DNA from: Escherichia coli
Lineage (GTDB): Bacteria; Pseudomonadota; Gammaproteobacteria; Enterobacterales; Enterobacteriaceae
Reading direction: 5' to 3' (one strand)
NCBI RefSeq assembly: GCF_024223415.1
Contig: NZ_CP100500.1
Length of the DNA stretch: 64,000 nt
Positions 40,013-51,230 of this stretch are shown here, piece by piece. The first letter of the stretch is position 1, and each line of letters starts with the position of its first letter. The notes under the pieces were generated by a model that made no database searches, was not told the origin of the DNA, and was given only the letters and a program-made list of their open reading frames with translations. Both the position numbers and the translations under genes were made by a program.

Positions 40013-41419
40013 ATGAATAGCAGTAAATTATCAGTAAGAGAAAAGATCGGCTACGGGATGGGCGACGCAGGATGCAACATCATCTTTGGCGCTATCATGC
40101 TGTTTGTTAACTATTTTTATACGGATATTTTTGGTCTGGCCCCGGCACTCGTTGGCGTATTACTGCTCTCTGTACGGGTTATCGATGCCGTCACTGACCC
40201 TATTATGGGGGCCATTGCCGACCGCACCCAAAGCAAATATGGTCGTTTTCGCCCCTGGCTATTGTGGATTGCCTTCCCCTACGCGCTATTCAGCATCCTG
40301 ATGTTTACCACGCCAGAATGGAGCTATAGCAGCAAGGTTATCTATGCCTTTGTTACCTATTTCCTGCTCTCCCTGACCTATACCGCCATTAACATTCCTT
40401 ACTGCTCGTTAGGTGGCGTGATTACTAATGACCCACAAGAGCGCGTGGCCTGCCAGTCGTACCGTTTTGTGATGGTGGGCATCGCTACCCTTCTGCTCTC
40501 GCTGACGCTATTGCCGATGGTGGATCTATTTGGCGGCGGCGACAAAGCGAAAGGGTATCAGCTGGCTATGACCGTGCTGGCAATCATCGGTATGTGTATG
40601 TTTTTGTTCTGTTTCGCCACGGTTCGTGAGCGCATTCGCCCGGCGGTACAAACCCATGACGACATGAAGAACGATTTTAAAGATGTCTGGAAAAACGATC
40701 AGTGGGTGCGCATTCTGCTGCTCACCTTGTGCAACGTCTGCCCTGGATTTATCCGCATGGCGGCAACCATGTACTATGTCACCTGGGTAATGGGTGAGAG
40801 TACTCAGTTTGCAACCCTCTTTATTAGCCTCGGCGTTGTCGGAATGATGATCGGCAGTATGTTGGCGAAAGTGTTAACCGACCGCTGGTGCAAACTGAAA
40901 GTCTTTTTCTGGACCAACATCGCGCTGGCAATTTTCTCCTGCGCCTTTTATTTCTTTAATCCGCACGCCACGGTGATGATTGTGGTGCTCTACTTCCTGC
41001 TCAACGTTCTGCACCAGATCCCCTCCCCGCTGCACTGGTCGCTGATGGCAGACGTCGACGACTACGGCGAATGGAAAACCGGTAAACGCATCACCGGCAT
41101 CAGCTTCTCCGGTAACCTTTTCTTCCTCAAACTGGGCCTGGCCATTGCCGGGGCGATGGTGGGCTTTCTGCTCTCATGGTACGGCTACGATGCCGGTGCG
41201 AAAGCCCAAAGTGCCACGGCGATTAACGGTATTGTACTGCTCTTTACCGTCATTCCTGGGGTGGGCTATCTGATTACCGCAGGCGTCGTCCGCCTACTGA
41301 AAGTAGACCGCGAACTGATGAAACGCATCCAGACCGATCTGGAAAAACGTCGCACCAATTACCGCGAACTGAATGACTATCAGGAAATAAACGCTGTAGA
41401 AACAGTAAGGAAAGCCTAA
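40013..41419 (+). CDS. MFS transporter, glycoside-pentoside-hexuronide (GPH):cation symporter family
   Basis: 468 aa, 12 TM; GPH signatures GYGMGD and DxxTDPIMGxIADRT...GRFRPW; stop overlaps start of next gene (TAATG). Confidence 0.8.
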   Translation: MNSSKLSVREKIGYGMGDAGCNIIFGAIMLFVNYFYTDIFGLAPALVGVLLLSVRVIDAVTDPIMGAIADRTQSKYGRFRPWLLWIAFPYALFSILMFTTPEWSYSSKVIYAFVTYFLLSLTYTAINIPYCSLGGVITNDPQERVACQSYRFVMVGIATLLLSLTLLPMVDLFGGGDKAKGYQLAMTVLAIIGMCMFLFCFATVRERIRPAVQTHDDMKNDFKDVWKNDQWVRILLLTLCNVCPGFIRMAATMYYVTWVMGESTQFATLFISLGVVGMMIGSMLAKVLTDRWCKLKVFFWTNIALAIFSCAFYFFNPHATVMIVVLYFLLNVLHQIPSPLHWSLMADVDDYGEWKTGKRITGISFSGNLFFLKLGLAIAGAMVGFLLSWYGYDAGAKAQSATAINGIVLLFTVIPGVGYLITAGVVRLLKVDRELMKRIQTDLEKRRTNYRELNDYQEINAVETVRKA

Positions 41420-42369
41420 TGCAAGACTGGCCGAATCCATTTATCGAGCAACGCGCCGATCCCTTTATACTGCGCGATGGCAACCACTATTATTTTATCG
41501 CCTCGGTGCCGGAGTACGACCGGCTGGAAATTCGCCGGGCAGACTCGCTCGTCGGGCTGCGCAGCGCCACGCCTGTCGTGGTGTGGCGTAAACCGCAAAG
41601 CGGCCCCATGAGCGAACTTATCTGGGCGCCGGAGCTGCATCATATTGCAGGTCGGTGGTATATCTATTTTGCCGCCACCCATACTCAGGCGCTCGACAAA
41701 CTGGGGATGTTTCAGCACCGGATGTTTGCCCTTGAATGTTGTGATGCCGATCCGCTCAGCGGAACGTGGATTGAAAAAGGACAAGTTAAAACACCATTTG
41801 ATACTTTTGCCCTGGATGCCACCACTTTTCACCATCAGGGTAAACAGTGGTATTTGTGGGCGCAAAAAGCACCGGATATCGCCGGGAACTCCAATATTTA
41901 CCTGGCCGAAATGGAAAATCCGTGGACGATCAAAGGCGAGCCGGTGATGTTGAGCAAACCGGAGTATGACTGGGAATGTCGCGGATTCTGGGTCAATGAA
42001 GGTCCGGCTGTCGTGATGCATGGCGAGCGGTTATTCATCAGCTACTCAGCCAGCGCTACCGACGAGAACTACTGCATGGGGTTATTGTGGATAGACATCG
42101 ACGCTGACCCGAGAGTGCCTGAGAACTGGCATAAATCGCCGCGTCCGGTCTTTTCGACCAGCTATGAAAATCGCCAGTATGGCCCCGGACATAACAGTTT
42201 TACCCAAACGCCCGAGGGTGAGGATGTGCTGGTCTACCACGCACGTAATTACACCGAAATAGAAGGCGATCCACTGTACGATCCTAATCGCCATACGCGC
42301 TTAAAATTGATTCGCTGGGATGAAAGTGGGATGCCTGACTTTGGCATCCCTCCTGCGGAGACTTACTGA
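41419..42369 (+). CDS. glycoside hydrolase family 43 protein (putative beta-xylosidase / alpha-L-arabinofuranosidase)
   Basis: 316 aa cytoplasmic (no signal peptide); N-terminal ADPFIL motif with catalytic-base Asp typical of GH43 five-bladed propeller; translationally coupled to the upstream transporter. Confidence 0.75.
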   Translation: MQDWPNPFIEQRADPFILRDGNHYYFIASVPEYDRLEIRRADSLVGLRSATPVVVWRKPQSGPMSELIWAPELHHIAGRWYIYFAATHTQALDKLGMFQHRMFALECCDADPLSGTWIEKGQVKTPFDTFALDATTFHHQGKQWYLWAQKAPDIAGNSNIYLAEMENPWTIKGEPVMLSKPEYDWECRGFWVNEGPAVVMHGERLFISYSASATDENYCMGLLWIDIDADPRVPENWHKSPRPVFSTSYENRQYGPGHNSFTQTPEGEDVLVYHARNYTEIEGDPLYDPNRHTRLKLIRWDESGMPDFGIPPAETY

Positions 42370-42375
42370 TTACAA

Positions 42376-42398
42376 TGCCCGGTGTATATCGCCGGGCA
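42376..42398. terminator. hairpin in 29 bp convergent gap between GH43 gene and ampE
   Basis: tgcccgg-tgtatatcg-ccgggca stem-loop. Confidence 0.4.
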
Positions 42399-43253
42399 CT
42401 ACACCAACGCCCCGTAAATCGTCAGTAGCGCAATTACCACCACGACCACGAACGAGGTTTTCTTCGCCATTGAAACTGCTGCTTTCGGCGTCTCAACCTT
42501 ATCGACATGCGGTTCACGCGCCAGTGAGAACTGTGCCAGACGCGTTAATACCTGGTATTGCGATGTATGGAAATCGGTCAGTGAAGCAAACCAGGCTGGT
42601 AACGCTTTCTCACCGTGACCAATCAAGGCATAAACTACGCCCGCAAGGCGAACTGGTACCCAATCCAGTACATGAAGCACGGCGTCAATGCCGGACTGTA
42701 AACGATGATGCGGCGTCTGATATCGCGCCAGCCAGTATTGCCATGCACGCAAGAACGCATACCCCATCAGCGTAACGGGTCCCCAGGTTCCCCCCACAAT
42801 CAGCCAGAACAGCGGTGCAAGATAAAAACGAAAGTTAATCCACAGCAATGCATTTTGCAGCTCACGCAAATACTCACGTTCGTCGCAGCCTGCCGGGACG
42901 CCGTGAATCATGGTGAGTTCGCCAGCCATCGTGGCACGGGCATGGCTATCATTACGTGAAGCTGCTGTCAGATAAGCATGATAATGAAGACGAACTTTAC
43001 CTGCGCCAATACACAGCAAACCAATCAGCAGCCACACCAGCAGCGTGGGGACGTTGAACAATACTCCCTACAATGCGTGTAACAGTAAAAAAGTCACGCC
43101 CATCGCAATAATGGTCATGCCTAACGTGCGCCCGAGAGAAAAATGTTTCACCCGCCGAAAGAACGCTTCAAGACGATGATCAAGCTGCCAGTGCTCGCCC
43201 AACTTAAACAGGCGCTCGAAAATTAACACCAGTAAGGTTGTAAATAGCGTCAT
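42399..43253 (-). pseudogene. ampE: ampE (AmpD-associated inner membrane protein) interrupted by an in-frame TAG
   Basis: Two adjacent same-frame ORFs (43068-43253 then 42399-43061) together span a full-length 284-codon AmpE; an amber codon (CTA on plus strand, 43068-43070) sits where the reading frame is otherwise continuous (…[15 protein letters not shown]…). Confidence 0.6.
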
Positions 43254-43801
43254 GTTGTCTCCTTGCTGACCAGCGCACGAAACCGTGTCCAATCAAATGC
43301 AGGGCCGGGATCGGTTTTCCGATCCGGCGCAATATCACAATGGCCCGTCATGTTATTAGCGATATCCGGATAGCGATCAATCAGTGCCCGCGTAACCGCC
43401 GCAAGCTGTTGATACTGCGCATCGGTATACGCCAGCGTATCGGTGCCTTCAAGCTCAATCCCAATAGAAAAATCATTGCAGCGTTCGCGCCCCTGATACT
43501 GAGAGACTCCCGCATGCCAGGCACGTTTATCGAAAGGAACATACTGGACTATTTCACCATCACGGCGAATCAAACAGTGAGCGGAGACGCGCAAATGGGC
43601 GATCTCAGCAAAGAAAGGATGTGCCTGCGGATCAATAGTTCCAGTGAATAATGCGTCGATCCACGGACCGCCAAACTCGCCTGGCGGCAGGCTAATATTG
43701 TGCACCACCAGCAGGGTGGGTGTTTCGTCGTCCGGGCGGCAATCGTAATGTGGTGAGGGAACGCGGCGCGCGCCAACCAGCCACCCCTGTTCTAACAACA
43801 T
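43250..43801 (-). CDS. ampD: 1,6-anhydro-N-acetylmuramyl-L-alanine amidase
   Basis: 183 aa [45 protein letters not shown]...; stop overlaps ampE start. Confidence 0.95.
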
Positions 43802-43828
43802 GCAGGATCTCCTTATATGTGGTGCTAA

Positions 43829-44782
<954 letters not shown>

Positions 44783-44984
44783 TAGCTGACAGATTTATCC
44801 GCTCCATAGTGGGCGGATAATCTCCCCTTCCCCAACCTTCTTCGTAACGCCTCGCAAATTTCTTGTCTTTCGCTGCAACGAAATAAAAAACCTCGGAAGC
44901 AGCTTTCCCGTTTCGTTTTTTGCCCCTCGCCTGTGCTGATGGCGTTTGCCAAAGTAGCACCAACCAAATCAAGGAGCGAAACAG

Positions 44985-45425
44985 ATGGACAAGCAACGCG
45001 GTTTTACACTTATCGAACTGATGGTGGTTATTGGCATCATTGCCATTTTAAGCGCCATTGGTATTCCCGCTTATCAAAACTACCTGCGCAAAGCCGCACT
45101 CACCGACATGCTACAAACCTTTGTGCCTTACCGTACCGCCGTAGAGTTGTGCGCGCTGGAACATGGTGGATTAGATACCTGCGACGGTGGCAGCAATGGC
45201 ATTCCCTCGCCTACCACCACCCGCTATGTTTCAGCCATGAGTGTGGCAAAGGGCGTGGTGTCGCTGACCGGGCAAGAAAGTCTCAATGGGCTAAGCGTCG
45301 TCATGACGCCAGGTTGGGATAACGCAAACGGCGTCACCGGCTGGGCGCGCAACTGCAATATTCAAAGTGACAGCGCATTGCAGCAAGCCTGCGAAGATGT
45401 CTTCCGCTTTGATGACGCCAACTAA
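44985..45425 (+). CDS. ppdD: type IV prepilin (major pilin PpdD)
   Basis: 146 aa; prepilin peptidase site and N-methyl-Phe motif MDKQRG/FTLIELMVVIGIIAILSAIGIP. Confidence 0.9.
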   Translation: MDKQRGFTLIELMVVIGIIAILSAIGIPAYQNYLRKAALTDMLQTFVPYRTAVELCALEHGGLDTCDGGSNGIPSPTTTRYVSAMSVAKGVVSLTGQESLNGLSVVMTPGWDNANGVTGWARNCNIQSDSALQQACEDVFRFDDAN

Positions 45426-45434
45426 GGAGCGGCA

Positions 45435-46820
45435 ATGAATATTCCACAGCTCACGGCCCTGTGCCTGCGTTATCAGGGAGTCTTGCTGGATGCCAGCGAA
45501 GAAGTGGTTCATGTTGCGGTGGTCGATGCCCCCTCACATGAGTTGCTGGACGCATTGCATTTCGCTACCACCAAACGTATTGAGATCACCTGCTGGACGC
45601 GCCAACAAATGGAAGGTCACGCCAGTCGCACACAACAGACATTGCCCGTAGCTGTTCAGGAGAAGCATCAGCCCAAAGCAGAGTTGCTGACTCGAACGTT
45701 ACAATCTGCGCTGGAACAACGCGCGTCTGATATTCATATCGAACCAGCGGACAATGCCTACCGCATCCGCTTGCGTATCGACGGCGTATTGCATCCTTTA
45801 CCGGATGTTTCACCGGATGCCGGAGTCGCGTTAACCGCCAGATTAAAAGTGCTGGGAAACCTGGATATTGCGGAACATCGCCTGCCGCAGGATGGGCAAT
45901 TCACTGTCGAACTGGCAGGAAACGCCGTCTCATTTCGTATTGCGACCTTACCATGTCGGGGTGGTGAAAAGGTGGTATTAAGGTTGTTACAGCAGGTGAG
46001 CCAGGCACTGGATGTCAACACGCTTGGAATGCAGCCGTTACAACTGGCGGACTTTGCTCATGCCTTGCAACAACCACAGGGACTGGTGCTGGTAACTGGC
46101 CCTACAGGCAGCGGCAAAACGGTCACGCTTTATAGTGCCCTGCAAACGCTGAATACCGCTGACATTAATATTTGTAGCGTCGAAGATCCGGTTGAGATCC
46201 CCATAGCCGGACTAAACCAGACGCAAATCCATCCGCGTGCCGGGCTCACCTTTCAGGGCGTTTTGCGTGCGTTATTGCGCCAGGATCCTGACGTCATCAT
46301 GATCGGAGAGATCCGCGATGGCGAAACAGCAGAGATCGCTATTAAAGCCGCGCAAACCGGTCACCTGGTGTTGTCTACCCTACACACCAATTCCACCTGC
46401 GAAACGCTGGTACGTTTACAGCAAATGGGAGTCGCCCGCTGGATGCTCTCATCAGCGCTTACGCTGGTAATAGCCCAGCGTCTGGTACGTAAACTTTGCC
46501 CACATTGTCGCCAGCAGCAAGGGGAGCCCATCCATATTCCAGACAATGTATGGCCGTCGCCGCTGCCCCACTGGCAGGCACCCGGTTGTGTACATTGCTA
46601 CCACGGTTTTTATGGTCGCACGGCCTTATTTGAAGTTCTGCCCATAACACCGGTCATACGTCAGCTTATTTCCGCTAATACCGACGTTGAATCGCTGGAA
46701 ACTCACGCCCGACAGGCGGGTATGCGTACGCTTTTTGAAAACGGCTGCCTCGCCGTGGAGCAAGGCTTAACCACCTTTGAAGAGTTAATCCGCGTACTGG
46801 GGATGCCGCATGGCGAGTAA
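45435..46820 (+). CDS. hofB: type IV pilus assembly ATPase (PilB/GspE family)
   Basis: 461 aa; Walker A GPTGSGKT, CxxC…CxxC zinc tetracysteine motif. Confidence 0.9.
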
Positions 46821-48012
46821 GCAACTCTGGCGCTGGCATGGCATAACCGGCGACGGCAATGCGCAAGATGGGATGCTATGGGCAGAGAGCCGTACTTTAC
46901 TGCTTATGGCACTACAGCAACAGATGGTTACCCCACTAAGCCTGAAGCGAATCGCCATCAATTCTGCGCAGTGGCGAGGAGATAAAAGCGCGGAAGTCAT
47001 TCATCAACTGGCGACGCTACTCAAAGCCGGGTTAACGCTTTCTGAAGGGCTGGCACTGCTGGCGGAACAGCATCCCAGTAAGCAATGGCAAGCGTTGCTG
47101 CAATCGCTGGCGCACGATCTCGAACAGGGCATTGCCTTTTCCAATGCCTTATTACCCTGGTCAGAGGTATTTCCGCCGCTCTATCAGGCGATGATCCGCA
47201 CGGGTGAACTGACCGGTAAGCTGGATGAATGCTGCTTTGAACTGGCGCGTCAGCAAAAAGCCCAGCGTCAGTTGACCGACAAAGTGAAATCAGCGTTGCG
47301 TTATCCCATCATCATTTTAGCGATGGCAATCATGGTGGTTGTGGCAATGCTGCATTTTGTTCTGCCGGAGTTTGCCGCTATATATAAGACCTTCAACACC
47401 CCACTACCGGCACTAACGCAGGGGATCATGACGCTGGCAGACTTTAGTGGCGAATGGAGCTGGCTGCTGGTGTTGTTCGGCATTATGCTGACGATAGCCA
47501 ATAAGTTGCTGATGCGCCGCCCGACCTGGCTTATCGCGCGGCAGAAATTGCTGTTACGCATCCCGATTATGGGTTCACTGATGCGGGGACAAAAACTCAC
47601 GCAGATCTTTACGATTCTGGCGCTGACTCAAAGTGCAGGCATTACTTTTTTACAGGGCGTAGAGAGCGTCAGAGAAACAATGCGCTGCCCGTACTGGGTG
47701 CAACTTCTGACACAAATCCAGCACGATATCAGTAACGGTCATCCCATCTGGCTGGCGCTAAAAAATGCCGGTGAGTTTAGCCCGCTCTGTTTGCAATTAG
47801 TGAGAACGGGAGAGGCCTCCGGCTCGCTGGATCTCATGTTAGACAACCTCGCCCATCATCATCGGGATAACACAATGGCGCTGGCGGATAACCTAGCAGC
47901 CTTACTGGAACCGGCGTTGCTGATCATAACGGGAGGAATTATCGGTACGCTGGTGGTGGCGATGTATCTGCCAATTTTCCATTTAGGCGATGCGATGAGT
48001 GGGATGGGATAA
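46810..48012 (+). CDS. hofC: type IV pilus inner-membrane platform protein (PilC/GspF family)
   Basis: 400 aa, GspF-like duplicated domains; overlaps hofB stop. Confidence 0.9.
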   Translation: MASKQLWRWHGITGDGNAQDGMLWAESRTLLLMALQQQMVTPLSLKRIAINSAQWRGDKSAEVIHQLATLLKAGLTLSEGLALLAEQHPSKQWQALLQSLAHDLEQGIAFSNALLPWSEVFPPLYQAMIRTGELTGKLDECCFELARQQKAQRQLTDKVKSALRYPIIILAMAIMVVVAMLHFVLPEFAAIYKTFNTPLPALTQGIMTLADFSGEWSWLLVLFGIMLTIANKLLMRRPTWLIARQKLLLRIPIMGSLMRGQKLTQIFTILALTQSAGITFLQGVESVRETMRCPYWVQLLTQIQHDISNGHPIWLALKNAGEFSPLCLQLVRTGEASGSLDLMLDNLAHHHRDNTMALADNLAALLEPALLIITGGIIGTLVVAMYLPIFHLGDAMSGMG

Positions 48013-48040
48013 CGCTGGCGTGTTGCTCCACACCAGCGTT
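48011..48040. terminator. bidirectional terminator hairpin between convergent hofC and guaC
   Basis: aacgctgg...ccagcgtt inverted repeat spanning the convergent gap. Confidence 0.4.
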
Positions 48041-48046
48041 GGAAGA

Positions 48047-49090
48047 TTACAGGTTGTTGAAGATGCGGTTTTCTTGTTCCTGCACACGGATAAATGTGGT
48101 GCGCTTGGTCAGTTCTTTCAGGCGTGAAGCCCCAACGTATGTACAAGCTGAACGCAGGCCGCCCAAAATATCACGCGCGGTATTTTCAACCGGGCCTCGC
48201 AGCGGCAGCTTAACGGTTTTACCTTCTGCTGCGCGATATTCCGCAACGCCGCCAACGTGACGTTTCATCGCAGACTCGGAGCTCATGCCGTAGAACAGCA
48301 TAAATTTCTCGCCGTTCTCCTCAACGATGCGACCGCCGCTCTCTTCGTGGCCCGCCAGCATGCCGCCAAGCATGACGAAATCGGCACCGCCGCCAAAGGC
48401 TTTCGCGACATCGCCCGGCGTGGTGCAGCCACCATCGCTGACGATCATTCCGCCCAGACCGTGCGCAGCATCGGCACATTCGATTACCGCAGAAAGTTGC
48501 GGATAACCGACACCTGTTTTGACGCGAGTTGTACAAACAGAACCTGGGCCAATGCCAACTTTAACGATATCGGCACCTGAGAGGATAAGCTCCTCACACA
48601 TTTCACCAGTCACTACGTTACCAGCACAAATGGTTTTGGTCGGCCACGCTTCACGCGCTTTCGCAACGAACTGCACGAAGTGTTCGGAATAACCATTCGC
48701 CACGTCAATACAAACGAAGTTTAATGCCGGGTTCAGGTCGAGAATCTGTTTAGTTTTTTCGAAATCCGCATCAGACGTACCGGTAGAAACCATCACATGT
48801 TTCAGCACATCAGCGGAAGAATTGTTGATAAACGCTTGCCACTCTTCGACAGAATAGTGTTTATGCACAGCAGTCAAAATATCAAAAGAAGCCAGCGCAG
48901 AGGCCATAGAAAATGTGCCTACGGTGTCCATATTTGCGGCGATAATCGGCACGCCGGACCAGCTCTGACCTGAATGTTTGAAGGTGAATTGACGTTCCAG
49001 TTCAACATCGGAACGGCTTTTAAGAGTGGAGCGTTTAGGGCGGATGAGAACGTCTTTAAAACCTAACTTCAGATCTTCTTCAATACGCAT
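48047..49090 (-). CDS. guaC: GMP reductase
   Basis: 347 aa [35 protein letters not shown]... (IMPDH/GMPR TIM barrel). Confidence 0.95.
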
Positions 49091-49314
49091 GTGCGGATTC
49101 CTGGGGTTAATGGCTATAAGGGTAAGAGCGCAACTCCAGTGACGCTATCATACGCACTAATCAATGCGGCGCAAGACTGCGAAATTGTCTTTTTTTACGC
49201 TACAATCCCATAAATTTACCTGGTAAATAGTGAGCGAACGTTTCATCAATTTCGCTTTCGTGCGCTCATTTTTAACGTTTTGATAATCATGATGAATTCC
49301 CGGGAATATAAATT

Positions 49315-50889: not shown

Positions 50890-51206
<317 letters not shown>

Positions 51207-51230
<24 letters not shown>

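Follow-up and report, generated by a model that had tools for sequence, protein, structure and literature searches.

Does the interrupted ampE frame in this stretch of Escherichia coli DNA represent a genuine, inherited nonsense allele, or is it a sequencing artifact or a gene that still yields a working product in spite of its stop codon? In the window, which is the whole stretch of 64,000 nucleotides that was analyzed, the complete ampE frame occupies positions 42399..43253 on the minus strand, as indicated by translation, the match to the family model NF008219, and the annotated ampE genes of strains KV7 and AR_0085. Translation of 43253..42399 gave 284 codons with one internal stop, followed by the natural stop, likewise a TAG, at 42401..42399. 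The internal stop is an amber codon, TAG, at 43070..43068 of the minus strand, in frame within the context TTA CTG TTA CAC GCA TTG TAG GGA GTA TTG TTC. The ORF list and the translation both confirmed what had been predicted from the sequence, an in-frame amber codon at 43068-43070 inside an otherwise full 284-codon ampE. The numbering had to be corrected. The premature stop begins at gene nucleotide 184 and is codon 62 rather than codon 61, and the N-terminal product comprises 61 and not 60 amino acid residues. Since the stop is in frame inside a conserved gene, chance is no issue.

The ORF list contains the gene as two pieces on the minus strand. The N-terminal fragment, 61 codons plus the TAG at 43068..43253, has an exact counterpart among the recorded protein products, matches PF17113, and spans the first hydrophobic segments of AmpE according to its hydropathy profile. 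The C-terminal ORF of 220 amino acids at 42399..43061 lies in the same frame and begins with a TTG (codon 65) located 6 nt past the TAG. With Gln62 restored, the protein reached 422.7 bits against the NCBIfam AmpE equivalog NF008219 (cutoff of 238), with residues 1-284 aligned to model positions 1-285. As encoded, the 61-aa piece scored 65.4 bits, which is below the cutoff of 238, and the 220-aa piece scored 340.8 bits over model positions 68-285. The locus thus possesses a full-length AmpE family match once Gln62 is restored, as well as the position of the second gene of ampDE, and lacks the uninterrupted frame due to the TAG at codon 62. Because of this in-frame TAG, it is an ampE pseudogene or nonsense allele and not an intact member of the family.

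The surroundings of the gene agree with those of wild-type E. coli ampE (NF008219/PF17113), the second gene of ampDE, which has the same locus, length, and overlap with ampD. The gene ampD (43250..43801, minus strand) is intact, with 310 bits to NCBIfam NF008758 AmpD and zero differences from KV7 within the gene. The TGA that ends it and the ATG of ampE overlap in the sequence ATGA at 43253..43250, so the expectation that the overlap was kept and ampD was untouched held. Gene order is as in the wild type, nadC / ampD-ampE / (GH43 island) / aroP, and synteny is identical to that of the annotated relatives. The gene downstream of ampE, encoding a glycoside hydrolase of family 43 (GH43; 41419..42369, plus strand; an ORF annotated in AR_0085 and KV7), is convergent, which leaves no co-transcribed gene behind ampE, and no polar effect of the nonsense codon is therefore expected. 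Compared to the wild-type ampE of AR_0085 and KV7, 854 of the 855 nucleotides are identical, with TAG instead of CAG at codon 62, and the annotated product consists of the 61-aa and 220-aa pieces, unlike that of the wild-type gene.

The region between ampE and aroP is variable. The GH43 gene is part of a two-gene insert at 40013..42369, which encodes a GPH:cation symporter and the glycoside hydrolase family 43 protein. This insert is missing from the common K-12-like arrangement, in which aroP follows directly after ampE, for instance on the public contig L006. In a comparison of L006 with contig L004, which carries the window haplotype, the ampE allele of the window diverged from the common allele by about 4.6% between codon 59 and the end of the gene, and the 3 kb upstream by about 1.3%. 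Most of the divergence within ampE was located in the last 350 bp or so, adjoining the GH43 insert (window 42399..42750, corresponding to positions 3501..3855 of the L004 and L006 comparison). This distribution suggests that the 3' segment of ampE may have been recombined or may have hitch-hiked, arriving together with the insert. An inverted repeat, GCCCGG...CCGGGC, is positioned at 42373..42398 of the minus strand, just past the ampE stop, where 29 bp separate ampE from the convergent GH43 gene. The repeat is without a T-run and may form a terminator hairpin shared by both genes. On contig L029 (SRR10231889), this locus contained another variable insert. The usual place of pdhR beyond aroP is occupied there by an ORF of 130 aa and by the gene for a protein of 408 aa that has T6SS Hcp and pyocin-S domains (10482..12094).

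Evaluation of the amber codon needs to consider the ancestral state of this position. When 5,426 complete E. coli genomes were searched by megablast with ampE, 5,424 of them contained the gene with at least 80% coverage, and none gave a 100% match. The seven nearest genomes, AR_0085, SCU-316, O78 strain 3, GPEC1446, NCTC10444, NCTC9112, and KV7, are one base off (99.9% identity). This base is the one in the TAG, the single ampE difference from these seven, all of which have CAG (Gln). Direct comparison gave a single mismatch with AR_0085 in 855 bp and likewise with KV7 within ampE. The change is a C-to-T transition on the coding strand, from CAG (Gln62) to TAG, and a G-to-A transition on the plus strand at position 43070. 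This result bears out the original prediction that a nonsense mutation rather than a deletion had occurred and that it was a single C-to-T change from CAG, the codon found in all these relatives and in K-12.

The distribution of the allele was determined with a 41-mer centered on the TAG, designed in such a way that any 28-nt megablast seed must cover the mutated base. On the allele of the window, which has a His at codon 59, the TAG 41-mer was found in 0 of the 5,426 complete genomes, and the same 41-mer with CAG was found in 12. The His59 allele is uncommon, so the test was repeated on the common Arg59 allele. Again, 0 of the 5,426 complete genomes contained the TAG version, and 4,570 contained the CAG version, including K-12, for which Gln had been predicted, and O157:H7. 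Taken together, the CAG 41-mers of both alleles accounted for 4,582 of the 5,426 genomes, while about 840 genomes with other flanking variants fall outside the reach of this test. The 41-mer was single copy per genome.

An allele that differs by one base from the nearest complete genomes and is present in 0 of the 5,426 could be the product of a sequencing or assembly error, with CAG as the true codon. The assembly itself is not error-prone, with no indels compared to KV7 and ampE as the only broken frame. The window is colinear with KV7 over its whole length of 64,000 bases and differs from it by 10 substitutions and 0 indels, and among the 55 KV7-annotated genes that are fully inside the window and were checked, ampE was the only one disrupted. 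Seven of the 10 differences were G:C-to-A:T changes in the direction from KV7 to the window. Besides the ampE stop, two of them were nonsynonymous, at positions 803 (gluQRS E268K) and 39726 (aroP V416L).

The decisive evidence against an error came from other isolates of the same lineage, a comparison the original prediction had proposed. A look-up of the exact 61-aa product returned seven contigs, including those from the Logan assemblies of ERR3437215 and SRR19977217, which matched the window with 100% identity across 6.2 and 3.5 kb, respectively, ampE and its TAG included. The 61-aa and 220-aa products are also on record at NCBI as SRA03137.1 and SRA03138.1, respectively. Both records go by the name "AmpE protein [Escherichia coli]", and both products are encoded on contig UDHK01000002.1 of assembly GCA_900482235.1. 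A second look-up, with the 456-aa AroP variant carrying the private V416L exchange, returned SRR19977205 and again SRR19977217. Over 15,976 bp, the SRR19977205 contig showed 100% identity to the window, and these bases include the TAG and both private SNPs of the window, at 39726 (aroP V416L) and at 48512 (guaC, synonymous). Assembly GCA_900482235.1 and ERR3437215 share with the window the TAG and the derived SNPs at 37566 and 39920 and are without these two private SNPs. All five differences between the window and KV7 in the region 36399..49250 also differ from AR_0085, and these differences are derived on the branch of the window for this reason.

Consequently, an independent NCBI assembly, GCA_900482235.1, and no fewer than three independent read sets (ERR3437215, SRR19977205, and SRR19977217) have the TAG on this derived haplotype, and they are distributed over at least two sub-lineages. 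Because two sub-lineages that differ by other SNPs both have it, the TAG was inherited. What the data show directly is that the mutation is real, derived, and inherited, and the probability that the true codon is CAG has become negligible, so that a sequencing error was dismissed as an explanation. As expected of a simple nonsense pseudogene, the locus has one substitution and no other lesion, and the mutation is real and heritable. A literature search returned no paper on GCA_900482235, UDHK01, ERR3437215, SRR19977217, or ERR11507464, and nothing relevant on an ampE pseudogene.

The Logan contigs of this lineage break at two positions of the window, 33879 and 50955, both of which coincide with repeats. 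The first is in a pair of internal repeats of about 560 bp with 80% identity (33454..34316) in aceF, which represent its lipoyl domains, and the second is in overlapping direct repeats of about 200 bp with 95.5% identity (50905..51220) in the yacG-mutT intergenic region.

With respect to the cause of the mutation, a hotspot due to 5-methylcytosine at a Dcm site was considered. The classical amber hotspots in lacI are Dcm sites, at which CCAGG changes to CTAGG. The mutation in ampE is the same C-to-T change from CAG to TAG in a different context because the mutated C resides in GCAGG and not in CCWGG, and hundreds of bases separate it from the closest Dcm sites in ampDE. Since the mutated C is outside a Dcm site, deamination of 5-methylcytosine does not explain the event, and this candidate was rejected.

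What the stop codon means for the gene product depends on the fate of the ribosomes that reach it. The ATGA overlap couples the normal ampE start to the ampD stop, and translation initiated at this start would end after 61 residues. According to the hydropathy profile, the stop is in a short turn between the hydrophobic segments of residues ~44-61 and ~63-85. Termination in this tight turn would mean that the last 223 of the 284 residues (about 78%) are not made from that start. The function of AmpE, an inner-membrane protein, would thereby be lost, ampD would be unaffected, and a polar effect would not arise. Loss of AmpE is tolerated in E. coli, so that the allele would behave as a young, near-neutral pseudogene. 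The 220 codons downstream of the TAG are still identical to those of the intact relatives, which fits a very recent mutation and equally well a continued use of these codons via readthrough or restart.

Readthrough by an amber-suppressor tRNA, or at a low level by a near-cognate tRNA-Gln, would restore the full-length AmpE, and the perfectly intact frame downstream of the TAG would be in agreement with this. Amber suppressors have been described in some natural coliforms, and when UAG is read through by a near-cognate tRNA, the residue inserted tends to be Gln, as was originally encoded at this position. Basal readthrough of UAG, however, is normally in the order of 1% or less. The premature TAG is followed by a G, as read from the sequence context. 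The natural stop of ampE is also a TAG, as are many stops in E. coli, so that a strong suppressor would be costly. A search for tRNA genes within the 64-kb window found none and therefore nothing in this region that would support the presence of a suppressor. Amber suppression in the carrier lineage is unlikely, and restoration of full-length AmpE by either kind of readthrough has a very low probability.

Alternatively, translation may restart at the TTG of codon 65 (43061..43059), and the pieces of 61 and 220 residues may assemble in the membrane into a working AmpE. Reinitiation by ribosomes that have terminated at a nonsense codon happens in E. coli, and co-assembly is known for membrane proteins that are split in loops. 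The TTG is in frame and is preceded by a Shine-Dalgarno-like GGGAG, for which a pairing energy of −8.4 kcal/mol was calculated, compared to −8.5 for the native Shine-Dalgarno sequence of ampE. The break is located between two hydrophobic segments, in their short connecting turn, and gene callers predict the 220-aa ORF (SRA03138.1), which has the 340.8 bits to the AmpE model mentioned above. On the other hand, the spacer between the Shine-Dalgarno-like motif and the start would be just 1 to 2 nt long, TTG is a weak start codon, and a restart would drop residues 62-64 within a tight hairpin. A selection signal for a split arrangement was also missing, with a single recent SNP and 0 occurrences in 5,426 complete genomes. 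A restart product of 220 aa is possible but unsupported as a prediction from the sequence, and a functional two-piece AmpE is quite improbable, marginally less so than readthrough.

Loss of AmpE function is the most likely outcome, judged from the missing 223 of the 284 residues. Of the three options in the original prediction, a loss-of-function allele, a sequencing error, and readthrough, a genuine loss-of-function allele is the best supported.

Other disrupted ampE alleles were found among public contigs. The same CAG-to-TAG change at Q62 was also present on the common Arg59 allele in contigs L006 to L008 (gene at 3001..3186). Haplotype L006 has 70 differences from the window haplotype (L004) in 3,855 bp and is without the GH43 island. 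In contig L012 (3001..3189), a GGA-to-TGA change at codon 63 generated G63-TGA, and in contig L026 (51..278), 1 bp of the neighboring GGG run of ampE was deleted. These disruptions are all within 4 nt of the window site in unrelated backgrounds, which is probably a matter of ascertainment by the exact-product look-ups. Long contigs, including one from Shigella flexneri, also encoded truncated AmpE products of 90 to 100 aa. Like the allele of the window, each of these alleles from E. coli and Shigella assemblies has a simple inactivating lesion and is intact in the rest of the gene. They arose independently, on other haplotypes, and none of them is from the lineage of the window. These cases show that ampE has been knocked out repeatedly and that such alleles persist, in agreement with weak selection on the gene.

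Codons 62 and 63 have been struck repeatedly in unrelated lineages, with Q62-TAG twice, G63-TGA once, and the 1-bp deletion in the GGG run. This could mean that selection favors an AmpE truncated or split at the very turn between the membrane segments, with the TTG65 restart then possibly leading to a two-piece AmpE of altered or retained activity. Moreover, many public short-read contigs (L009-L011, L013-L023, and L030-L038) end at ampE nucleotides 185 to 197, in codons 62 to 66. The design of the search has to be taken into account here. The look-ups used only products of 61 to 65 aa, which means that only events at codons 62 to 66 could be retrieved. Because the look-ups could return only breaks at that spot, the clustering probably represents ascertainment bias, and a mutational or structural hotspot at codons 62 to 66 was rejected on the same grounds. 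An insertion of an IS element or a prophage, or an att site, at nucleotides 185 to 197 was rejected as well since the contigs ended without foreign sequence. The left ends of the contigs stopping in ampE varied or fell into a known repeat. Among the 5,426 complete genomes, none had an ampE split into separate places, and the at least 80% coverage in 5,424 of them was in one place. As a rough estimate, the tens to about 100 contigs per truncated length would correspond to random contig breaks over very many E. coli assemblies. The contig ends at codons 62 to 66 are most likely such random breaks picked out by the search design, and selection for a split or truncated AmpE is about as improbable as readthrough of the TAG.

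A genuine, vertically inherited nonsense allele that probably abolished AmpE function and represents a young, near-neutral pseudogene in one small E. coli lineage is thus the reading in which high confidence can be placed. Its near-neutrality is inferred from the fact that deletion of ampE in E. coli is viable with small shifts in the MIC. The ampE deletion in strain BW25113 changed the MICs at most 2-fold (PMC8772759). In Pseudomonas aeruginosa PAO1, a knockout of ampE alone had no significant effect, and the function of the protein "still needs to be elucidated" (PMC2654508). In nature, ampE is nevertheless not generally dispensable, as 5,424 of 5,426 complete genomes retain it with at least 80% coverage, and carriers of the allele may pay some cost.

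Concerning its biological meaning, the locus is most likely an ordinary nonsense pseudogene, derived from a gene that is well known and implying no new mechanism, and it is already in GenBank as two CDSs. The annotation should name it an ampE pseudogene instead of two "AmpE protein" CDSs. A small E. coli lineage can be recognized by this allele, which also lengthens by one the list of natural knockouts of a gene with an unclear role. Strains with the allele could serve as natural ampE-null backgrounds for work on peptidoglycan recycling or the response to beta-lactams.
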